From positions 1 to 7,267 of the IMG/VR virus record IMGVR_UViG_3300029745_000183: DNA of 7,267 nucleotides. One strand, 5' to 3'. Under the pieces are notes generated by a model. That model ran no database searches, was not told the DNA's origin, and saw only the letters and a program-made list of their open reading frames with translations. The translations under genes and the position numbers were made by a program. Position 1 is the first letter of the stretch, and each line of letters opens with the position of its first letter. Source of the DNA: a virus (taxonomy: Duplodnaviria; Heunggongvirae; Uroviricota; Caudoviricetes). Positions 1-7,267 of this stretch are shown here, in pieces.

Positions 1-192
1 GTGACGCGAAAAGATGCCTGGTACTTTGCCAACTATGACCCGCGTATGAAGCGTGAAGGCCTGCATTATGTCGTGGTTGAGCGGGATGAAAAGTACATGG
101 CGAATTTTGACGAGATGGTGCCGGAGTTCATCGAAAAAATGGACGAGGCACTGGCTGAAATTGGTTTTGTATTTGGGGAGCAATGGCGATGA
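1..192 (+). CDS. 3' end (63 codons) of an unidentified protein, probably truncated at the window edge
   Basis: Frame is open from base 1 to TGA at 190-192. The first codon is GTG at the window edge, so the real start is most likely upstream. The stop overlaps the ATG of the next ORF (ATGA at 189-192). No motif I can assign. Confidence 0.5.
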
Positions 193-347
193 CGCATCCT
201 CACGATAATATCCGGGTAGGCGCGATCACTTTCGTCTACTCCATTACAAAGCGAGGCTGGGTATTTCCCGGCCTTTCTGTTATCAGAAATCCACTGAAAG
301 CACAGCGGCTGGCTGAGAAGATAAATAACAAACAGGAGGATATATGA
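189..347 (+). CDS. Hypothetical small protein (52 aa), translationally coupled on both sides
   Basis: ATG at 189 overlaps the upstream stop (ATGA) and its TGA at 345-347 overlaps the ATG of the DGQHR gene (ATGA). GGGGAG sits 9 nt upstream of the ATG. It is below the 60-aa cutoff of the supplied ORF track. No recognisable domain. Confidence 0.3.
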
Positions 348-1408
348 GTCAGGTTGGTAATCATTCATTCGAATTTCCGGCATCGCAAGGTGTACAGGGT
401 GGTACTGTTACACTCTTCCTTACCATACCAGGAAGATCGCTGGCTCGTTTCCTCGCTTCAGATAATTACGGCCATACACTGGAACGCTCTCAGCGAGAAA
501 TTAATCCAAATCGAGTACGAAAATTTTTAAATTATCTCACTAACGCAGACTCAAGAAATGAGCCTTTTATCATTCCCCCTCTCGTAGGTAACTGTGATTC
601 GAATATAGAATTTGTACCGTTTGGCAACACAAATGTTGGTATAGCCAGAATTCCCCTCGACGCCGAAATAAAACTTTTTGATGGTCAACATCGTGCAGCT
701 GGCATTGAGATATTTTGCCGAAGTTCCCCATCAACGCTCATGGTTCCCATGATGCTTACAATGAATCTGCCGCTAAAAACCCGGCAGCAGTTCTTTTCGG
801 ACATAAATAACAACGTTTCTAAGCCATCAGCGACCATCAATATGGCGTATAACGGCCGGGATGATATTGCTCAGGGAATGATATCCTTCCTGACCCAACA
901 TACTGTATTTGCCGATATAACCGATTTTGAACACAACGTAGTGCCATTAAAAAGTAATATGTGGGTGAGTTTCAAGGCACTCACTGATGCAACGTCAAAG
1001 TTCGCTAGGAACGGCAATCAACAACTTGAAATGGGATATATAGAATCTGTCTGGGAGGCATGGATTACACTAACTCAGATTGACTCAATCCGACATGGTG
1101 TACACCACGCTACGTACAAGCGCGATTATATTCAGTTCCATGGAGTAATGATTAACGCTTTCGGTTTTGCGGTTCAACAGATGATGGTTAATCATTCCAT
1201 CGCAGAAATAACTTCTATGATCGAAAAACTATGTGCAACTACCAGCTCTGCAGAAAGAGAGGATTTTTTTCTGATGGATAACTGGGCGGGGATCTGCACG
1301 AAAGCCAGCCAGGAAAAACTATCTGTTATTGCCAATGTGGCAGCGCAGAAAGCAGCAGCAAACAGACTGATACAAGCTTTTACCAAAGGAAGTCTGGAAA
1401 CAACTTAA
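344..1408 (+). CDS. DGQHR-domain protein, DndB-like (ParB/Srx-fold superfamily), 354 aa
   Basis: Contains the exact family-defining motif DGQHR (in IKLFDGQHRAAGIEIF), preceded by FIIPPLVGN. Length is in the DndB range. AGGAGG lies 4 nt upstream of ATG 344. No DndC/D/E-like genes follow in the window. Confidence 0.75.
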   Translation: MSQVGNHSFEFPASQGVQGGTVTLFLTIPGRSLARFLASDNYGHTLERSQREINPNRVRKFLNYLTNADSRNEPFIIPPLVGNCDSNIEFVPFGNTNVGIARIPLDAEIKLFDGQHRAAGIEIFCRSSPSTLMVPMMLTMNLPLKTRQQFFSDINNNVSKPSATINMAYNGRDDIAQGMISFLTQHTVFADITDFEHNVVPLKSNMWVSFKALTDATSKFARNGNQQLEMGYIESVWEAWITLTQIDSIRHGVHHATYKRDYIQFHGVMINAFGFAVQQMMVNHSIAEITSMIEKLCATTSSAEREDFFLMDNWAGICTKASQEKLSVIANVAAQKAAANRLIQAFTKGSLETT

Positions 1409-1485
1409 TGAATCAACATTGTCTCATATCAGCATGCTGTACGGCGTCTTTAAGGAACGGTGAGCATGAAAAACAAAATCATCAT

Positions 1486-1512
1486 GGAGCTACAGGCTCC
1501 TTTTTTATTATT
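1486..1512 (+). terminator. Candidate intrinsic terminator downstream of the DGQHR gene
   Basis: GGAGC-tacag-GCTCC hairpin (5-bp stem) followed directly by TTTTTTATTATT. The stem is short, so this is weak to moderate. Confidence 0.35.
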
Positions 1513-1561
1513 CGCATTCACCCTCAAGCGTATTAACCAACAATTCAGGGATTAATGAAAG

Positions 1562-1780
1562 ATGGCAGACATCATTGATTCAGCATCAGAAATTGAAGAA
1601 TTACAGCGCAACACAGCAATAAAAATGCGCCGCCTGAACCACCAGGCTATATCTGCCACTCATTGTTGTGAGTGTGGCGATCCGATAGATGAACGAAGAC
1701 GCCTGGCCGTTCAGGGTTGTCGGACTTGTGCAAGTTGCCAGGAGGAGATCGAACTTAAGAACAAACAATGGGGACTGTGA
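1562..1780 (+). CDS. TraR/DksA-family C4-type zinc-finger protein (72 aa)
   Basis: Small protein with two Cys pairs (CCEC and CRTCASC) in the spacing typical of the TraR/DksA C4 zinc finger. Homologues are common in lambdoid early regions. Confidence 0.7.
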   Translation: MADIIDSASEIEELQRNTAIKMRRLNHQAISATHCCECGDPIDERRRLAVQGCRTCASCQEEIELKNKQWGL

Positions 1781-1827
1781 TGGCTTCAAAGCAGCAAATT
1801 TCAACATCGTCCAACTGAGGTGTAAAA

Positions 1828-2067
1828 ATGTTCAGAATCATTTTTCCTAACACCTGGTACGTCGACCACCACGGCACTCCCTGCAAAATCCTGCGTTCTA
1901 CCCACAACAAAGTTCACTACATCCGAAAAGGCAGAACATGTATCGCCAGCATGTTCCGCTTTAATCATGACTTTGAACCTGTGAATAAAGCTGATGCAGA
2001 TCGGATAGCAGAAGAGATCGAAACGGCAGAACACATTAAGAAGTTACGTGCCATACGCAGGAAATAG
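1828..2067 (+). CDS. Hypothetical phage protein (79 aa)
   Basis: ORF with a good SD (GAGGTG, 7-nt spacer), co-oriented with the xis-int operon. No motif recognised. Confidence 0.55.
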   Translation: MFRIIFPNTWYVDHHGTPCKILRSTHNKVHYIRKGRTCIASMFRFNHDFEPVNKADADRIAEEIETAEHIKKLRAIRRK

Positions 2068-2206
2068 AAAAATTGATAAATTCAATACTGCATTACTCAG
2101 CATTAAATTTATCTCTATGACCAGTCAAGAGATGTACCTGCCATGAGCTTAATATCATGTCAGATATATCGGTCACAAACTCCCTCAGCAGCTAAGAGGA
2201 GGACAA

Positions 2207-2443
2207 ATGTCTCGACTAATCACTTTACAGGACTGGGCTAAAGAAGAATTTGGGGACTTAGCACCAAGTGAGCGAGTTCTGAAAAAATACGCGCAAGGGA
2301 AAATGATGGCCCCACCCGCTATAAAAGTTGGTCGCTACTGGATGATTGACCGAAATTCCCGTTTTGTAGGAACGCTTGCAGAACCGCAACTCCCAATAAA
2401 CGCAAACCCAAAACTCCAACGGATAATCGCTGATGGCTGCTAG
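2207..2443 (+). CDS. xis: Excisionase (lambda Xis-like winged helix)
   Basis: N-terminal ITLQDW and a PPAIKVGRYW segment resemble lambda/HK022 Xis (LTLQEW ... PPPVKDGREY). AAGAGGAGG RBS. The 3' end overlaps the int start by 11 nt, as in lambda. Confidence 0.85.
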   Translation: MSRLITLQDWAKEEFGDLAPSERVLKKYAQGKMMAPPAIKVGRYWMIDRNSRFVGTLAEPQLPINANPKLQRIIADGC

Positions 2444-3575
2444 ACCCCGATCTCACAAAATCTCTATACCCAATTTATATTGCAAATTAGATAAGCGAAC
2501 CGGAAAGGTATATTGGCAATACAAACATCCACTATCCGGTCGTTTTCATAGCTTAGGAACTGATGAGAATGAAGCAAAACAAGTTGCTACTGAAGCAAAT
2601 ACCATTATTGCTGAACAACGTACCAGACAAATATTAAGCGTCAATGAGCGTCTGGAAAGAATGAAAGGCAGGCGCTCAGACATTACGGTGACAGAATGGC
2701 TTGATAAATATATTTCTATCCAGGAGGACAGGCTGCAACATAATGAACTAAGACCCAACTCCTATCGGCAAAAAGGCAAACCCATTCGTCTTTTCCGTGA
2801 GCATTGTGGAATGCAACACCTCAAGGATATTACCGCACTTGATATTGCCGAAATAATTGATGCTGTAAAGGCTGAAGGTCATAACAGGATGGCGCAAGTC
2901 GTGAGAATGGTGTTGATCGACGTCTTCAAAGAAGCACAACACGCAGGACATGTTCCGCCAGGATTTAACCCTGCGCAGGCAACAAAACAACCGCGAAATC
3001 GAGTAAACCGCCAAAGATTGTCACTGCTCGAATGGCAGGCAATATTTGAAAGCGTAAGCAGACGGCAGCCCTATTTAAAATGCGGCATGCTACTTGCTCT
3101 TGTTACTGGACAACGTTTAGGCGATATCTGCAATTTGAAATTCTCTGATATATGGGACGACATGTTGCACATTACTCAGGAAAAAACCGGTTCAAAACTT
3201 GCTATTCCGCTTAACCTGAAATGCGATGCTCTGAATATTACCCTTCGTGAAGTTATATCTCAGTGCAGGGATGCTGTTGTTAGTAAATATCTGGTCCATT
3301 ACCGTCACACTACCTCTCAAGCAAACAGAGGAGACCAGGTTTCTGCAAATACTCTGACAACGGCTTTTAAAAAGGCCCGGGAAAAATGTGGCATAAAATG
3401 GGAGCAAGGAACTGCGCCCACATTTCATGAGCAGCGATCTCTCTCAGAACGGTTATATCGGGAACAGGGTCTGGATACGCAAAAGTTGTTAGGCCATAAA
3501 TCCAGAAAAATGACCGACCGATACAATGATGATCGTGGTAAAGACTGGATTATCGTAGATATCAAAACAGCATAG
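2433..3575 (+). CDS. int: Tyrosine recombinase, lambda Int family integrase (380 aa)
   Basis: N-terminus RPRSHKISIPNLY and C-terminal TFHEQRSLSERLY...LLGHKS...RYNDDRG match lambda Int (RRRSHERRDLPPNLY; TFHELRSLSARLY...LLGHKSDTM...YRDDRG), including the catalytic R, HxxR and Y positions. Confidence 0.95.
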   Translation: MAARPRSHKISIPNLYCKLDKRTGKVYWQYKHPLSGRFHSLGTDENEAKQVATEANTIIAEQRTRQILSVNERLERMKGRRSDITVTEWLDKYISIQEDRLQHNELRPNSYRQKGKPIRLFREHCGMQHLKDITALDIAEIIDAVKAEGHNRMAQVVRMVLIDVFKEAQHAGHVPPGFNPAQATKQPRNRVNRQRLSLLEWQAIFESVSRRQPYLKCGMLLALVTGQRLGDICNLKFSDIWDDMLHITQEKTGSKLAIPLNLKCDALNITLREVISQCRDAVVSKYLVHYRHTTSQANRGDQVSANTLTTAFKKAREKCGIKWEQGTAPTFHEQRSLSERLYREQGLDTQKLLGHKSRKMTDRYNDDRGKDWIIVDIKTA

Positions 3576-3585
3576 AAAATAGCCA

Positions 3586-3622
3586 GTTTTGGGGAAGGGT
3601 TTTGGGGAAAGTTTTGGGGAAG
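3586..3622. repeat. Three tandem copies of GTTTTGGGGAA(G/A), period 12-13 bp
   Basis: Direct reading: copies start at 3586, 3599 and 3611, immediately 3' of the int stop codon. Confidence 0.6.
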
Positions 3623-3642
3623 ATTTTACATCATCATAAATC

Positions 3643-3675
3643 AACGGGCGTGTTATACGCCCGTTTCAATATTTA
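3643..3675. terminator. Bidirectional intrinsic terminator shared by int (+) and the icd fragment (-)
   Basis: Perfect 9-bp stem AACGGGCGT / ACGCCCGTT with a 5-nt loop, followed by TTTCAATATTT on the + strand and a U-rich run on the minus strand. It lies 23 nt beyond the icd stop codon. Confidence 0.65.
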
Positions 3676-3688
3676 ACACATGTAGTGA

Positions 3689-3853
3689 TTACATATTCTT
3701 GATGATCGCGTCACCAAACTCTGAACATTTCAGCAGTTTAGCGCCTTCCATCAGACGTTCGAAGTCATAGGTTACAGTCTTCGCGTTGATCGCGCCTTCC
3801 ATACCTTTAACAATCAGGTCTGCGGCTTCAGTCCAACCCATGTGGCGCAGCAT
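3689..3853 (-). pseudogene. icd: 3'-terminal fragment of isocitrate dehydrogenase (last 54 codons plus stop), icdC-like
   Basis: Minus-strand translation gives [54 protein letters not shown], which I recognise as the Icd C-terminus. An in-frame TAA two codons upstream ends the homology at about 3853, so no full-length icd is present. Confidence 0.85.
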
Positions 3854-3911
3854 TAGTTAGATGACTAAATCGTAACTATTTGACATAGCAACATAATTTT
3901 ACTAATTTGCA

Positions 3912-3948
3912 TATAACTCATTAGCCCTTAGCATTTCTATAACTCATT
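3912..3948. repeat. Two exact direct copies of TATAACTCATT, 26 bp apart
   Basis: Direct reading: copies at 3912-3922 and 3938-3948, in the AT-rich arm between the icd homology boundary and the mcrA 3' end. Confidence 0.5.
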
Positions 3949-4040
3949 GATTATAAACATGTGTTTTTGAGTTTTGATAACCATTTTTAGCATAAAAATA
4001 GCAGTTAACATTTGCAGAAGTTAAGATCAGAGAAAAATTT

Positions 4041-4054
4041 TACCCTGTAGGGTA
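4041..4054 (-). terminator. Weak candidate terminator downstream of mcrA
   Basis: TACCC-tgta-GGGTA hairpin about 35 nt past the mcrA stop, followed on the minus strand by AAATTTTTCTC. The stem is only 5 bp. Confidence 0.2.
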
Positions 4055-4086
4055 TTACGTCTTAAATGTGACTTTAATAAATAATT

Positions 4087-4920
4087 TTATTTCTGTAATC
4101 GGTTTATATTAACGTAAAGCATCTCGATTAGTTCTTTTGCATTTTTACTATAGTGCAATTCTCTATGGCAATTCGGACAAAGGGCAACACAGTTATCTGT
4201 TGTATCAGCACCACCTGAAGACAGGGGAATTACATGATGCACTTCCAAATATGGGTTTCCATCATTTAAATAAAACGGAGCATTTTTACCACAGTTTTCA
4301 CATATACCTTTACTTTGCTGTAAAATCCAAGCTTTTACCATCGGGTCTCGGACATAAACTTTTTGTAGTCTTTCTACCTCAACTGGTTTCCTAGAGCCCT
4401 CGGGTTGACTCAACGTTTTCTTAATTAATTTACTAACCCTCATATTCAGAAGCGATTCATCATCTGTAGGCTGTGAAAGCTCTGATAGTTCTCCACGTAT
4501 TATAGACGCCCAAAAACTGTCACTATAAATACCTGGAACATTTATCAATATTCGTTTCGTTCTATTGCCGGAAGGAATTTCCTTTCTCCCCGTACGACTA
4601 AAATAAGCCTGATAACCACACATCTTCAAGCGTATATCGCGGGGGCTATTACCAATCAAAGTAAAATATTCACCAGGATGGATTTTTCTTTCATCCAAAG
4701 AATGCATATGTTTTCTGACTGATGATGACGCCAGATATACTACGACTTGGGATACACCAGAATCAACCAACCGTTCAATGATATAATCAAGAGCGATATT
4801 GTAATCTTTGTTTCTGTCACCCGGCCCCCACGACTCAAGGATTAGACCATAAACACCATCCTCTTCACCTATCGAACACTCAGCTTTCAGTTCAATTCCA
4901 TTATTATCAAAAACATGCAT
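4087..4920 (-). CDS. mcrA: McrA, type IV modified-cytosine-specific restriction endonuclease (HNH), 277 aa
   Basis: Protein begins MHVFDNNGIELKAECSIGEEDGVYGLILESWGPGDRNKDY and ends with the HNH region CENCG...HHVIP...CVALCPNCHRELH. Length and sequence match my recollection of E. coli McrA, which is encoded on e14 next to pin. Confidence 0.93.
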   Translation of the reverse strand: MHVFDNNGIELKAECSIGEEDGVYGLILESWGPGDRNKDYNIALDYIIERLVDSGVSQVVVYLASSSVRKHMHSLDERKIHPGEYFTLIGNSPRDIRLKMCGYQAYFSRTGRKEIPSGNRTKRILINVPGIYSDSFWASIIRGELSELSQPTDDESLLNMRVSKLIKKTLSQPEGSRKPVEVERLQKVYVRDPMVKAWILQQSKGICENCGKNAPFYLNDGNPYLEVHHVIPLSSGGADTTDNCVALCPNCHRELHYSKNAKELIEMLYVNINRLQK

Positions 4921-5026
4921 AATATTAATCTTTAATCAATTTTTCACGACAATACTACTTTTATTGATAAAATTGCAACAAGTTGCTGTTGTTTTACTTT
5001 CTTTTGTACACAAAGTGTCTTTAACT

Positions 5027-5581
5027 TTATTTATCCCCTGCAGGAAACCTCTTATACAAAGTTGACACACCAACATCATAGATAATCGCCACCTTCTGGC
5101 GAGGAACTCCTGATGCAATTAATCGTCCGGCCTGTTCCCATTGTTCTGGTGTAAGTTTGGGACGACGTCCACCAATTCGTCCCTGTGCGCGAGCAGCTTC
5201 CAGTCCAGCTTTTGTTCTTTCAACAATCAGTTCACGCTCCATTTCAGCCAGGGCACCCATCACATGAAAGAAAAAGCGCCCCATTGGGGTACTGGTATCA
5301 ATTGAATCCGTCAGACTACGAAAGTTGATGCCTCGTTCGCGCAACTCCTCCACCAGCACGACAAGATGCCGCATACTGCGCCCCAGTCGGTCCAGTTTCC
5401 AGACCACCAGCGTATCACCTGCCGATAATGTCCTGAGCAGTTTTTTCAGTCCCGGCCTTTCGGACTTTGTACCGCTTATCTTGTCTTCAAAAATCAGCTC
5501 GCATCCTGCACAGTTCAGCGCATTACGTTGTAGATCTGTGTTCTGGTCATTTGTTGACACACGTACATAGCCAATAAGCAT
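5027..5581 (-). CDS. pin: Pin DNA invertase, serine recombinase of the Gin/Hin/Pin family (184 aa)
   Basis: From the internal Met the protein reads MLIGYVRVSTNDQNTDLQRNAL..., the canonical invertase N-terminus with catalytic Ser in VRVSTNDQ, and has a C-terminal HTH. GGGAG RBS 8 nt upstream of ATG at 5581. The track ORF start at 5617 is an in-frame upstream extension. Confidence 0.93.
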   Translation of the reverse strand: MLIGYVRVSTNDQNTDLQRNALNCAGCELIFEDKISGTKSERPGLKKLLRTLSAGDTLVVWKLDRLGRSMRHLVVLVEELRERGINFRSLTDSIDTSTPMGRFFFHVMGALAEMERELIVERTKAGLEAARAQGRIGGRRPKLTPEQWEQAGRLIASGVPRQKVAIIYDVGVSTLYKRFPAGDK

Positions 5582-5607
5582 GGTAGATCTCCCTGACAAA
5601 AGCAGGA

Positions 5608-6063
5608 ATGATGCCATTTGCTCGTTATTTCTGCATTTTCATAAACGTTGGTTTGGGAGAAGCGGCAAAACGAAATGTGGGGACAGGGGAAAATCAGATA
5701 CCGGACATGGCCTCTTTTGCCAGTGGTGATGGATGGATGAAATTACCCAACGGGAAAATCCTGCAATATGGTCGTGGTGCGATTACGCCGACATTATCGA
5801 CGCAAACAATGAGAATTACATTCAGCATCCCTTTTCCTAAAGAAGTGGACTGCGCCATGCTTACCCATTCTGGTGATGGTGGTGCGCCTTTAGGCGCTGG
5901 ACGGGGATTCGTGATGACTGCAGAAGGTCCAACACTAACCGGTTTTAATTCCGCTTACAGAACTGCATCAACCAGCTCCACAGTAACCTCTATAACTGTA
6001 TTGACGATTTGCAGTGATTGCAGGACGTTACGGGTAGCCTCATCGTTCTGTGGTTTCTGTTAA
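5608..6063 (+). pseudogene. Orphan side-tail-fibre C-terminal fragment (stfE-like), the variable cassette of the Pin inversion module
   Basis: Divergent from pin and reads through the crossover site. The segment [19 protein letters not shown] resembles tail-fibre C-terminal domains. No fibre N-terminal region, no tfa gene, and a Cys-rich, non-protein-like tail ([17 protein letters not shown]). ATG 5608 is probably not a genuine start. Confidence 0.4.
5636..5661. other. Pin/Gin/Hin-type recombination crossover site (pix-like), 26 bp
   Basis: TTTTCATAAACG-TT-GGTTTGGGAGAA: two 12-bp half-sites around a 2-bp core. Reverse complement TTCTCCCAAACC-AA-CGTTTATGAAAA resembles hixL TTCTTGAAAACC-AA-GGTTTTTGATAA. 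Sits 55 bp upstream of the pin start, the expected position. Confidence 0.55.
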
Positions 6064-6068
6064 TCGAT

Positions 6069-6269
6069 TTATCCATTAGATTTTTCATAAAGCTCAGGTT
6101 TAAATGGCAACCGTCCGCAAGTTCTATATGCAGCTTCTGCTGCACGTCCTTTTGGAATTAACTGGCCCGGACGGTTTCGCCACTGATAAACGGCTTCAGT
6201 TGTTATGCCGAAAAAAGCAGCAACTTTCTCAATACTGCCGAAGTAGCTTTCGATATCGTCAGTTGTCAT
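6069..6269 (-). CDS. Cro-like HTH regulator (YdaS/Cro family), 66 aa
   Basis: Small HTH protein (VAAFFGITTEAVYQWRN...IPKGRAAEAAYRTCGRLPFKPELY) transcribed divergently from the CI-like repressor. GGAGGG RBS. Confidence 0.8.
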   Translation of the reverse strand: MTTDDIESYFGSIEKVAAFFGITTEAVYQWRNRPGQLIPKGRAAEAAYRTCGRLPFKPELYEKSNG

Positions 6270-6366
6270 ACGCCCTCCAAACTAAGTTTTATTAGATGCT
6301 AATTACAAATCTATCTTTGGTCAATAAAAACTAAGATTACTTAGCAATTCAAGAAATGGTGCTCCT
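6270..6366. promoter_or_regulatory. Divergent promoter/operator region between the cro-like and cI-like genes
   Basis: 97-bp AT-rich intergenic region. Two inverted repeats of form CTAAG-N4-(C/A)TTAG at 6282-6295 and 6331-6344. Minus-strand sigma70-like elements TTGACC (6319-6324) and TAGCAT (6296-6301) with a 17-bp spacer, a candidate pR for the cro-like gene. Confidence 0.55.
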
Positions 6367-6993
6367 ATGGAAACGGTTGGTCAGCGTATAAAAGCTCTGA
6401 GAAGAGTTACCGGAACGTCCCAGAAAGAATTGGGTAAATTTTGTGGAGTAAGCGACGTTGCTGTGGGGTACTGGGAGAAAGACATCAATACCCCTGGTGG
6501 GGAGGCACTTTCGAAATTAGCGAAGTTCTTCAATACGTCAATAGATTACATTCTTTATGGTGCTGAGTTTGAAGGCAAACTCGTCACAAACATGCGCAGA
6601 GTTCCTGTAATATCGTGGGTTCAGGCTGGGCAGTTTACTGAGTGCAGGGCAGCAGAAGTGTTTAGTGAAGTGGACAAGTGGGTAGATACATCATTAAAGA
6701 TTGGTGATAACTCATTTGCATTAGAGGTTAAAGGTGACTCCATGACTAACCCTAATGGCCTCCCAACAATACCAGAAGGCGCAACAGTGATTGTAGATCC
6801 AGATGCAGAACCTCGTCATGGAAAAATAGTCATCGCTCGACTTGATGGAACAAACGAAGCTACAGTAAAAAAATTAGTCATCGATGGCCCTCAAAAGTTT
6901 TTAGTGCCATTAAATCCTCGGTATCCCAACATCCCTATCAATGGTAATTGCCTTATCATTGGTGTAGTCAAAGGAGTTCAATACGAACTCTAA
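6367..6993 (+). CDS. CI-like prophage repressor: N-terminal XRE HTH plus C-terminal S24 (LexA-like) autopeptidase domain, 208 aa
   Basis: HTH at the N-terminus (QKELGKFCGVSDVAVGYWE). Ala-Gly cleavage-site candidate in WVQAGQF. Catalytic Ser in KGDSM and Lys in ATVKKL, as in LexA and lambda CI. Confidence 0.88.
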   Translation: METVGQRIKALRRVTGTSQKELGKFCGVSDVAVGYWEKDINTPGGEALSKLAKFFNTSIDYILYGAEFEGKLVTNMRRVPVISWVQAGQFTECRAAEVFSEVDKWVDTSLKIGDNSFALEVKGDSMTNPNGLPTIPEGATVIVDPDAEPRHGKIVIARLDGTNEATVKKLVIDGPQKFLVPLNPRYPNIPINGNCLIIGVVKGVQYEL

Positions 6994-7058
6994 GACCTCT
7001 CTTCTCTAACTAAGGCACCGAACTAAGAAAAGTTTGGTGTTTTCTCTTGCCATAATAA

Positions 7059-7072
7059 CTAAGTTAAGTTAG
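7059..7072. promoter_or_regulatory. Third operator-like inverted repeat CTAAG-ttaa-GTTAG downstream of the repressor gene
   Basis: Same half-site architecture as the two sites in the cro-cI intergenic region. Lies in a 247-bp untranslated region upstream of the next + strand gene, where a pL/oL equivalent would be expected. Confidence 0.3.
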
Positions 7073-7240
7073 ATTTTATATCAAAGATAACGAACAGGCA
7101 GGACGCCCACGAAGTAGCCGCCTGGGGCATATGAAGTCCAGGATGATTCGTTAGCAACAAAAAAGCGCCCTACAGGACGCTTAGCTCTTTAACAATCTGG
7201 TCCCCATCAACAAGTAACTGATAACTTGAGGAGGTGTGAA

Positions 7241-7267
7241 ATGCACAAAACAGAACCAAAAATCGTC
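7241..7267 (+). CDS. 5' end of an unidentified gene (first 9 codons, MHKTEPKIV), truncated by the window end
   Basis: ATG at 7241 preceded by a strong GAGGAGG SD with a 6-nt spacer. Co-oriented with the repressor gene. Confidence 0.4.

Follow-up and report, generated by a model that had tools for sequence, protein, structure and literature searches.

The analysed stretch of DNA, hereafter the window, comprises 7,267 nucleotides. Positions 1-3855 display 97-98% identity to phage-21-like lambdoid phages, and the phage matches stop at 3855. This left part contains the C-terminus of exo, a TraR-type gene, a DUF4222 gene, and the xis (2207-2443) and int (2433-3575) genes of a phage-21-like prophage, both on the + strand and recognized through the Pfam families Exc, Arm-DNA-bind_1 and Phage_integrase. 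These are followed by three GTTTTGGGGAA repeats (3586-3621, + strand), a terminator predicted as a hairpin 3' of an icd copy (3643-3665, - strand), and the icd copy itself (3689-3853, - strand), a 3' fragment of 54 codons on the P' side of the 21-like prophage, which is of the phage-21 type, its translation ending in ...AIIKNM as in phage 21. The icd 3' homology starts with an 11-bp common core, ATGCTGCGCCA (3843-3853, - strand), in which the crossover presumably takes place. The core is common to K-12 icd and to the K-12 e14 right-arm-to-icdC (attR) junction, the first difference between icd and icdC occurs directly after it, and the core-proximal block ctAAcTAcTGCTGCGCCA is kept family-wide. 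From ~3636 rightward the window matches the right end of e14 with 97-98% identity, through a spacer or arm (3854-4086; 233 bp, 26.6% GC), mcrA (4087-4920, - strand) and pin (5027-5617). The mcrA gene, the last at the e14 right end, encodes an HNH domain and matches a model of a type IV methyl-directed restriction enzyme over its full length; a terminator-like hairpin is predicted after it (4041-4054, - strand), in that outer portion of the AT-rich spacer which does not belong to att. The gene order pinE, mcrA, arm, icdC of K-12 matches the mcrA side of the window.

As the phage-21 matches end at 3855 while the e14 matches continue to the right, and as K-12 carries the same arm, the spacer is assigned to the P arm of e14. 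Based on these matches, the window represents the junction of two tandem prophages in icd, with a phage-21-like prophage on the left and an e14-like remnant on the right. A 21-like phage has integrated at the attR core of e14, yielding the order e14 P arm, core, 21 P' arm. The integrase encoded next to the arm (2433-3575) is accordingly predicted not to be the one using it; window Int and e14 IntE are 60% identical, and window Xis and XisE 36%. The arm belongs to the e14-like element on the mcrA side and not to the adjacent integrase, which is of the phage-21 type with GTTTTGGGGAA sites of its own. Assignment of the GTTTTGGGGAA triple as putative phage-21-type P' arm-type sites of the adjacent integrase follows from homology to phage 21, the record of which (OL657228) labels the homologous triple as attP subsites with the consensus YYTTCCCCAAAA.

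The same hybrid junction is found in E. coli 82.0311, PEC131 and other strains, in several viral contigs and in Citrobacter sp. FP75, and the 233-bp arm is present in 346 of 5426 complete E. coli genomes. Hybrids of an e14-type P arm with a phage-21-type P' arm and int, corresponding to window 3689-3982, were also observed in the collected records L001, L008, L015, L016, L019, L036, L041, L062 and L142. In the viral contig L016 (~5270-5283), the sequence beyond the e14-type P arm and core, CACTACGCATGCAG, does not resemble icd, and the arm adjoins something other than an icd 3' copy there. Phage record ON470584, considered as a contiguous attP, was rejected: although the arm is present, the record represents a prophage region that is misassembled and includes host genes. 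The closest well-described counterpart is the e14 attR arm of K-12 (NC_000913.3, ~1,211,180-1,211,412), with a 233-bp arm that is 99% identical, the same core and the same pinE-mcrA neighbours, including both copies of the repeat discussed below (1,211,318-1,211,328 and 1,211,344-1,211,354). The surroundings differ: the K-12 arm abuts the displaced icd end (icdC), followed by iraM, whereas the neighbours of the window arm are the icd copy and P' arm belonging to the phage-21-like prophage. Moreover, the e14-like element of the window carries a large internal deletion, unlike K-12 e14.

Within the arm, the sequence TATAACTCATT is present as two exact + strand copies, a core-proximal copy 1 (3912-3922) and a distal copy 2 (3938-3948), with no other exact copy in the whole window. 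The start-to-start distance is 26 bp, and measured from the edge of the icd homology at 3853 the proximal copy is located at 59-69 bp and the distal copy at 85-95 bp, in full agreement with the two exact 11-bp direct repeats of the preliminary description, placed there 26 bp apart and 60-95 bp from the end of the icd homology. To call them phased is generous, as the distance does correspond to ~2.5 helical turns, which leaves the copies facing opposite sides of the helix. Of 5000 dinucleotide-preserving shuffles, 2.3% contained a direct repeat of at least 11 bp and 0.9% contained one whose copies were within 50 bp of each other, percentages that apply to the 233-bp arm alone, while the repeat itself was picked from a scan of 7.3 kb. 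The pair is genuine and, compared to shuffled arms, modestly unusual. Apart from the pair, the window has a single close direct repeat of 11 bp or more, the GTTTTGGGGAA triple at 3586-3621; we note that this triple, just after int, represents a stronger repeat signal than the TATAACTCATT pair.

A different sequence in the arm is predicted to be recognized by the e14-type integrase. GGTTATCAAAAC (3971-3982, - strand) is shared with the e14 P' arm, as expected for an arm-type site, and has a degenerate, A-rich copy on either side (3959-3970 and 3983-3994). In the attL region of K-12 e14, past the icd stop and terminator, the sequence GGTTATCAAAAttTTATCAAAAaaaGTTATCAAAAC harbors the arm-type 10-mer three times in tandem; the e14 P' arm has three copies of the GGTTATCAAAAC 12-mer and the mcrA-side arm a single one. 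Throughout 19 kb of K-12, GTTATCAAAA has 8 matches with at most one mismatch compared to 2.2 expected, a count reached in 0 of 200 shuffles, and every exact match falls in the two att arms. The P' triple is kept beside int genes 82-86% identical to IntE at attL junctions of other hosts, and a contiguous e14-type attP (L068) holds the P' triple together with a P-arm copy of the GTTATCAAAA motif. The GGTTATCAAAAC site is positioned at +119 from the core, identical to the position of the phage 21 dodecamer, where ATTTTGGGGAAA occurs at +119 from the end of TGGCGCAGCA and the e14 equivalent is GTTTTGATAACC. An arm-binding domain (PF09003, Arm-DNA-bind_1) is detected in e14 IntE (E 1e-37), in the Int of L068 and in the window Int, and both excisionases, XisE and window Xis, belong to the lambda Xis family.

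Two further sites, in-between the arm-type site and the core, are predicted to bind IHF. H1, AATCAATGAGTTA (3940-3952, - strand), is an exact match to the consensus pattern WATCAANNNNTTR, which has two exact matches in the window, H1 being the only one near the att site. The core-proximal H2, TGTCAAATAGTTA (3873-3885, - strand), is IHF-like with one mismatch and a T-rich tract upstream. Phage 21 displays the same arrangement in its attP (OL657228): in addition to the same icd core and the dodecamer at +119, it has an exact IHF consensus at +88..+100, with the offset and orientation of H1, and a one-mismatch IHF-like site at +21..+33, as in the e14 arm, and its P' triple likewise follows the icd copy and a terminator. 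The two elements differ in the arm-type sequence, which is TTCCCCAAAA in phage 21 compared to GTTATCAAAA in e14, in their proteins, the Int of phage 21 being 60% and its Xis 36% identical to those of e14, and in that phage 21 has no TATAACTCATT-like repeat.

For a broader comparison, viral, genome and metagenome collections were searched for GTTATCAAAA, a gap and then GCTGCGCCA. This provided ~100 arms with an identical 139-bp span and 56 distinct related sequences, from which 19 representatives less than 85% mutually identical were taken; a genome-wide pattern scan returned mostly chance matches, with only 5 scored loci being true relatives. A match with at most one mismatch to the IHF consensus is present at the H1 position in 18 of the 19 e14-type representatives and at the H2 position in 16 of 19, against 0.3% of the other positions in these arms. 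Mean information in the same representatives amounts to 1.26 bit/position for H1 and 1.15 for H2, compared to 0.67 for the whole arm and 0.30 for the proximal repeat copy. Phage-21-type arms, collected in a parallel scan, have the same 139-bp geometry, with H1 in 10 of 10 and H2 in 7 of 10 representatives at the same threshold, and the site-to-core span is 139 bp in nearly all relatives of both types. We also observe that in e14-type and phage-21-type arms of many hosts (loci L005-L077, L198-L250 and L331-L398) both IHF sites remain at fixed offsets though the intervening sequence is largely unrelated. Conservation of the att type is confined to about 130 bp (3854-3994) of the 233-bp arm, the outer part being unconserved in relatives. 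The preliminary description of all of 3854-4086 as an AT-rich att arm is hence appropriate in composition and too wide in extent.

Placed on this map, the distal copy coincides with the TTR-side half of the conserved, predicted IHF site, with 9 of its 11 bases inside the H1 consensus. In diverged E. coli haplotypes the distal copy is changed to CCTAACTCATT or CATAACTCATT with the IHF consensus intact, reducing the exact repeat to 9-10 bp. The proximal copy is of a different nature. It repeats AATGAGTTATA, while the ATCAA element of H1 is replaced by GCTAA; in the IHF register it reads GGCTAATGAGTTA, with 4 mismatches to WATCAANNNNTTR, and positions with 4 mismatches make up 14% of the background. 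No conserved IHF-like signal is found at its position among the 19 e14-type representatives. The proposal of accessory-factor sites in the preliminary description thus stands for the distal copy, which overlaps a conserved IHF consensus. The check suggested there, a search for the same motif near att in related elements, returned the pair in the e14 lineage only: a direct repeat of at least 9 bp at this position is restricted to that lineage among the 19 arms, the other lineages reach at most 7/11 self-similarity over 13 offsets, the 18 other representatives are devoid of the TATAACTCATT pair despite sharing the GTTATCAAAA arm-type motif, and the proximal copy is not kept even in the closest diverged arms (Citrobacter FP75 and E. 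coli C1). For the pair, the outcome is therefore the one that the preliminary description had named as refuting its proposal, repeats missing from homologous elements with functional att sites, the contiguous attP of L068 included.

Given the constant 139-bp arm length, substitution rather than a 26-bp duplication or insertion gave rise to the proximal copy. It is invariant in 8 e14-type haplotypes and in 3 arms ~10% diverged, where only ~1 change is expected, which renders the invariance uninformative and the polymorphism test without power. Some selection may nevertheless act on copy 1, as an exact 11-mer repeat is found in only ~1-2% of shuffled arms and the copy is unchanged in the haplotypes. 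Most likely, its resemblance to the H1 half is fortuitous or a relic; at most, the proximal copy would be part of a poorly defined accessory region of the excisionase or Fis type between H1 and H2. Few pairs of P arm and xis/int alleles are available on viral contigs, since most predicted prophages either stop at int or carry cargo that separates int from att. A candidate Fis site, the 15-mer GCATTTCTATAACTC at 3931-3945, has G/C ends and Y/R at -4/+4 when judged by eye against the Fis consensus; it is unconserved in relatives and was given no weight.

Taken together, we consider it probable that the arm is a P arm of the lambda type, and that the repeat pair consists of one predicted IHF site and a partial look-alike of it; the two copies would then not constitute a functional pair. 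An arm-binding integrase domain, a motif present in both arms and IHF consensus matches between the arm-type sites and the core are all found in e14, and point to the lambda-type att arm that the preliminary description had proposed. Inward from mcrA, the arm is ordered as GGTTATCAAAAC (3971-3982), H1 (3940-3952), a ~55-bp spacer, H2 (3873-3885) and the core (3843-3853). We propose that IntE would bind GGTTATCAAAAC via its N-terminal domain, and that IHF would bend the arm at H1 and H2, allowing the integrase at the arm-type site to reach the core, as in lambda, with XisE presumably acting between H1 and H2; all protein binding in this scheme is predicted from sequence.

The P arm of lambda is ordered P1-H1-P2-X1-X1.5-X2/F-H2-core. 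Similar to lambda, e14 has an integrase for arm-type and core sites with an arm-binding domain, a Xis-family excisionase, an outer arm-type site oriented as the P' sites, and two predicted IHF sites in the P arm. Unlike lambda, e14 lacks a convincing P2 arm-type site and identified excisionase or Fis sites, and its P' arm is ~265 bp long because it encompasses 165 bp of icd coding sequence. The total att span is here ~400 bp, in agreement with the minimal attP of phage 21, which is reportedly 366-418 bp; work by Wang et al. from 1997 is likewise said to have proposed repeated dodecamers as the phage 21 arm sites. A search for a second, P2-like arm-type site near copy 1 gave only weak matches in e14-type arms. 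In some 21-type arms a weak inverted arm-type-like match is located ~-77 from the core, represented in phage 21 by TTTTGGCTAA (L003 6546-6556), which could be a P2-like site. The e14 GGCTAAT (window 3920-3929) lies in nearly the same place and abuts the proximal repeat copy.

Alternatively, both copies may be sites for the e14 excisionase XisE, comparable to X1 and X2 of lambda, with XisE competing with IHF at H1 and thereby contributing to directionality. Several aspects are compatible with this: both are direct repeats located between the arm-type site and the core of the P arm only; the motif is missing from the P' arm, as expected for excisionase sites; their distance from the core edge (59-95 bp) is near that of X2 and X1 in lambda; copy 1 occupies the region of the lambda Xis and Fis sites; XisE is of the lambda Xis family; and copy 1 is invariant in the e14-type haplotypes. 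We nonetheless regard the reading as unlikely. The spacing is 26 bp (2.5 turns) rather than ~20 bp, no comparable repeat occurs in the 18 other e14-type arms or in 10 21-type arms with Xis-family proteins, copy 2 is fully accounted for by the conserved IHF site, and it loses its first 1-2 bases in the diverged haplotypes. In addition, L068, with an Int 85% and a Xis 79% identical to IntE and XisE, lacks the TATAACTCATT repeat; this last argument is weakened by a difference between the L068 excisionase and XisE at the position aligned with R23 of lambda Xis, a residue that contacts DNA, so that the lack of the repeat in L068 is compatible with a XisE site in e14. A more elaborate version, in which lineage-specific XisE sites provide a built-in switch, with IHF at H1 supporting integration and XisE at both copies supporting excision, appears decidedly unlikely. 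In lambda, occupancy of H1 favours integration and hinders excision, and such a switch would, if true, be a variation on this rule.

It is very unlikely that both copies are IHF sites, with a weaker proximal one adding further bend. Copy 1 and H1 do have the TTR-side half AATGAGTTA in common, and the + strand sequence TAACT... recurs in one orientation at H1, copy 1 and H2. Yet copy 1 in register misses the ATCAA element, its 4 mismatches are common in the background, and the relatives are devoid of a conserved IHF-like signal there. That the repeats represent integrase arm-type sites, as the preliminary description suggested with reference to recombinase sites, is scarcely credible: direct repeats in an att arm and the arm-binding domain of the element's integrase would agree with it, whereas TATAACTCATT has no match with up to 2 mismatches in the attL/P' region of K-12 e14, the different motif GTTATCAAAA is present in both arms, is kept with the integrase type and sits at the phage 21 dodecamer position, and the repeats are unconserved among the elements sharing it. 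Finally, it is highly improbable that the repeats are without att role and simply reflect chance in AT-rich foreign DNA bound by H-NS downstream of mcrA. Among the H-NS-associated 'promoter islands' listed in PMC3661553 is the K-12 spacer between mcrA and icdC, the counterpart of window 3854-4086, and the repeat is only modestly improbable, one such case among ~19 lineages being unsurprising. Against this, copy 2 coincides with a motif fixed in position in ~30 diverged arms of two integrase types; the 'promoter island' status fits AT-rich foreign DNA and leaves the positional conservation of H1 and H2 unexplained. Within the window no Rfam family was matched, promoter-like matches in the arm did not exceed those in shuffles, and PMC10111431 contains nothing on e14 arms.

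The element bearing the arm is e14 itself, here fused to a relative of phage 21, and as nothing departs from the lambda plan, the TATAACTCATT feature is ordinary and already explained in kind, with little importance beyond annotation. The use of a common attachment site in icd by e14 and phage 21, two classic elements, has long been known. By-products of the analysis are a corrected reading of the locus, as two tandem prophages with the arm assigned to the e14-type element, an explicit candidate for the e14 arm-type motif (GGTTATCAAAAC), two predicted IHF sites backed by ~30 diverged arms, and the finding that the 139-bp geometry of the arm is exactly the same for the two integrase types. Should the proximal copy be an excisionase site overlapping IHF control, this would add a modest mechanistic point.

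Elsewhere in the window, we observe that the e14-like element is heavily deleted internally at ~6030-6066, where a tail-fibre fragment (5608-6063, gp53-like C-terminal domain) abuts a Cro-like gene (6069-6269), followed by an S24 repressor-like gene (6367-6993); as a contiguous block, 4900-7267 is found in no complete E. coli genome. AACTAAG is present on the + strand five times around the S24 repressor-like gene, at 6280, 6329, 7008, 7021 and 7057, and the whole window has 6 copies (the sixth at 2746) against 0.7 expected. The copies resemble half-sites of operators within the e14-like immunity region. In the 21-like prophage, an ORF of 354 residues of the DndB family (DGQHR; 344-1408) is located between exo and xis. 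The segment is absent from most related phages, the matches of which to the window are split into 2-3 pieces, and the ORF may be a defence-related cargo gene.
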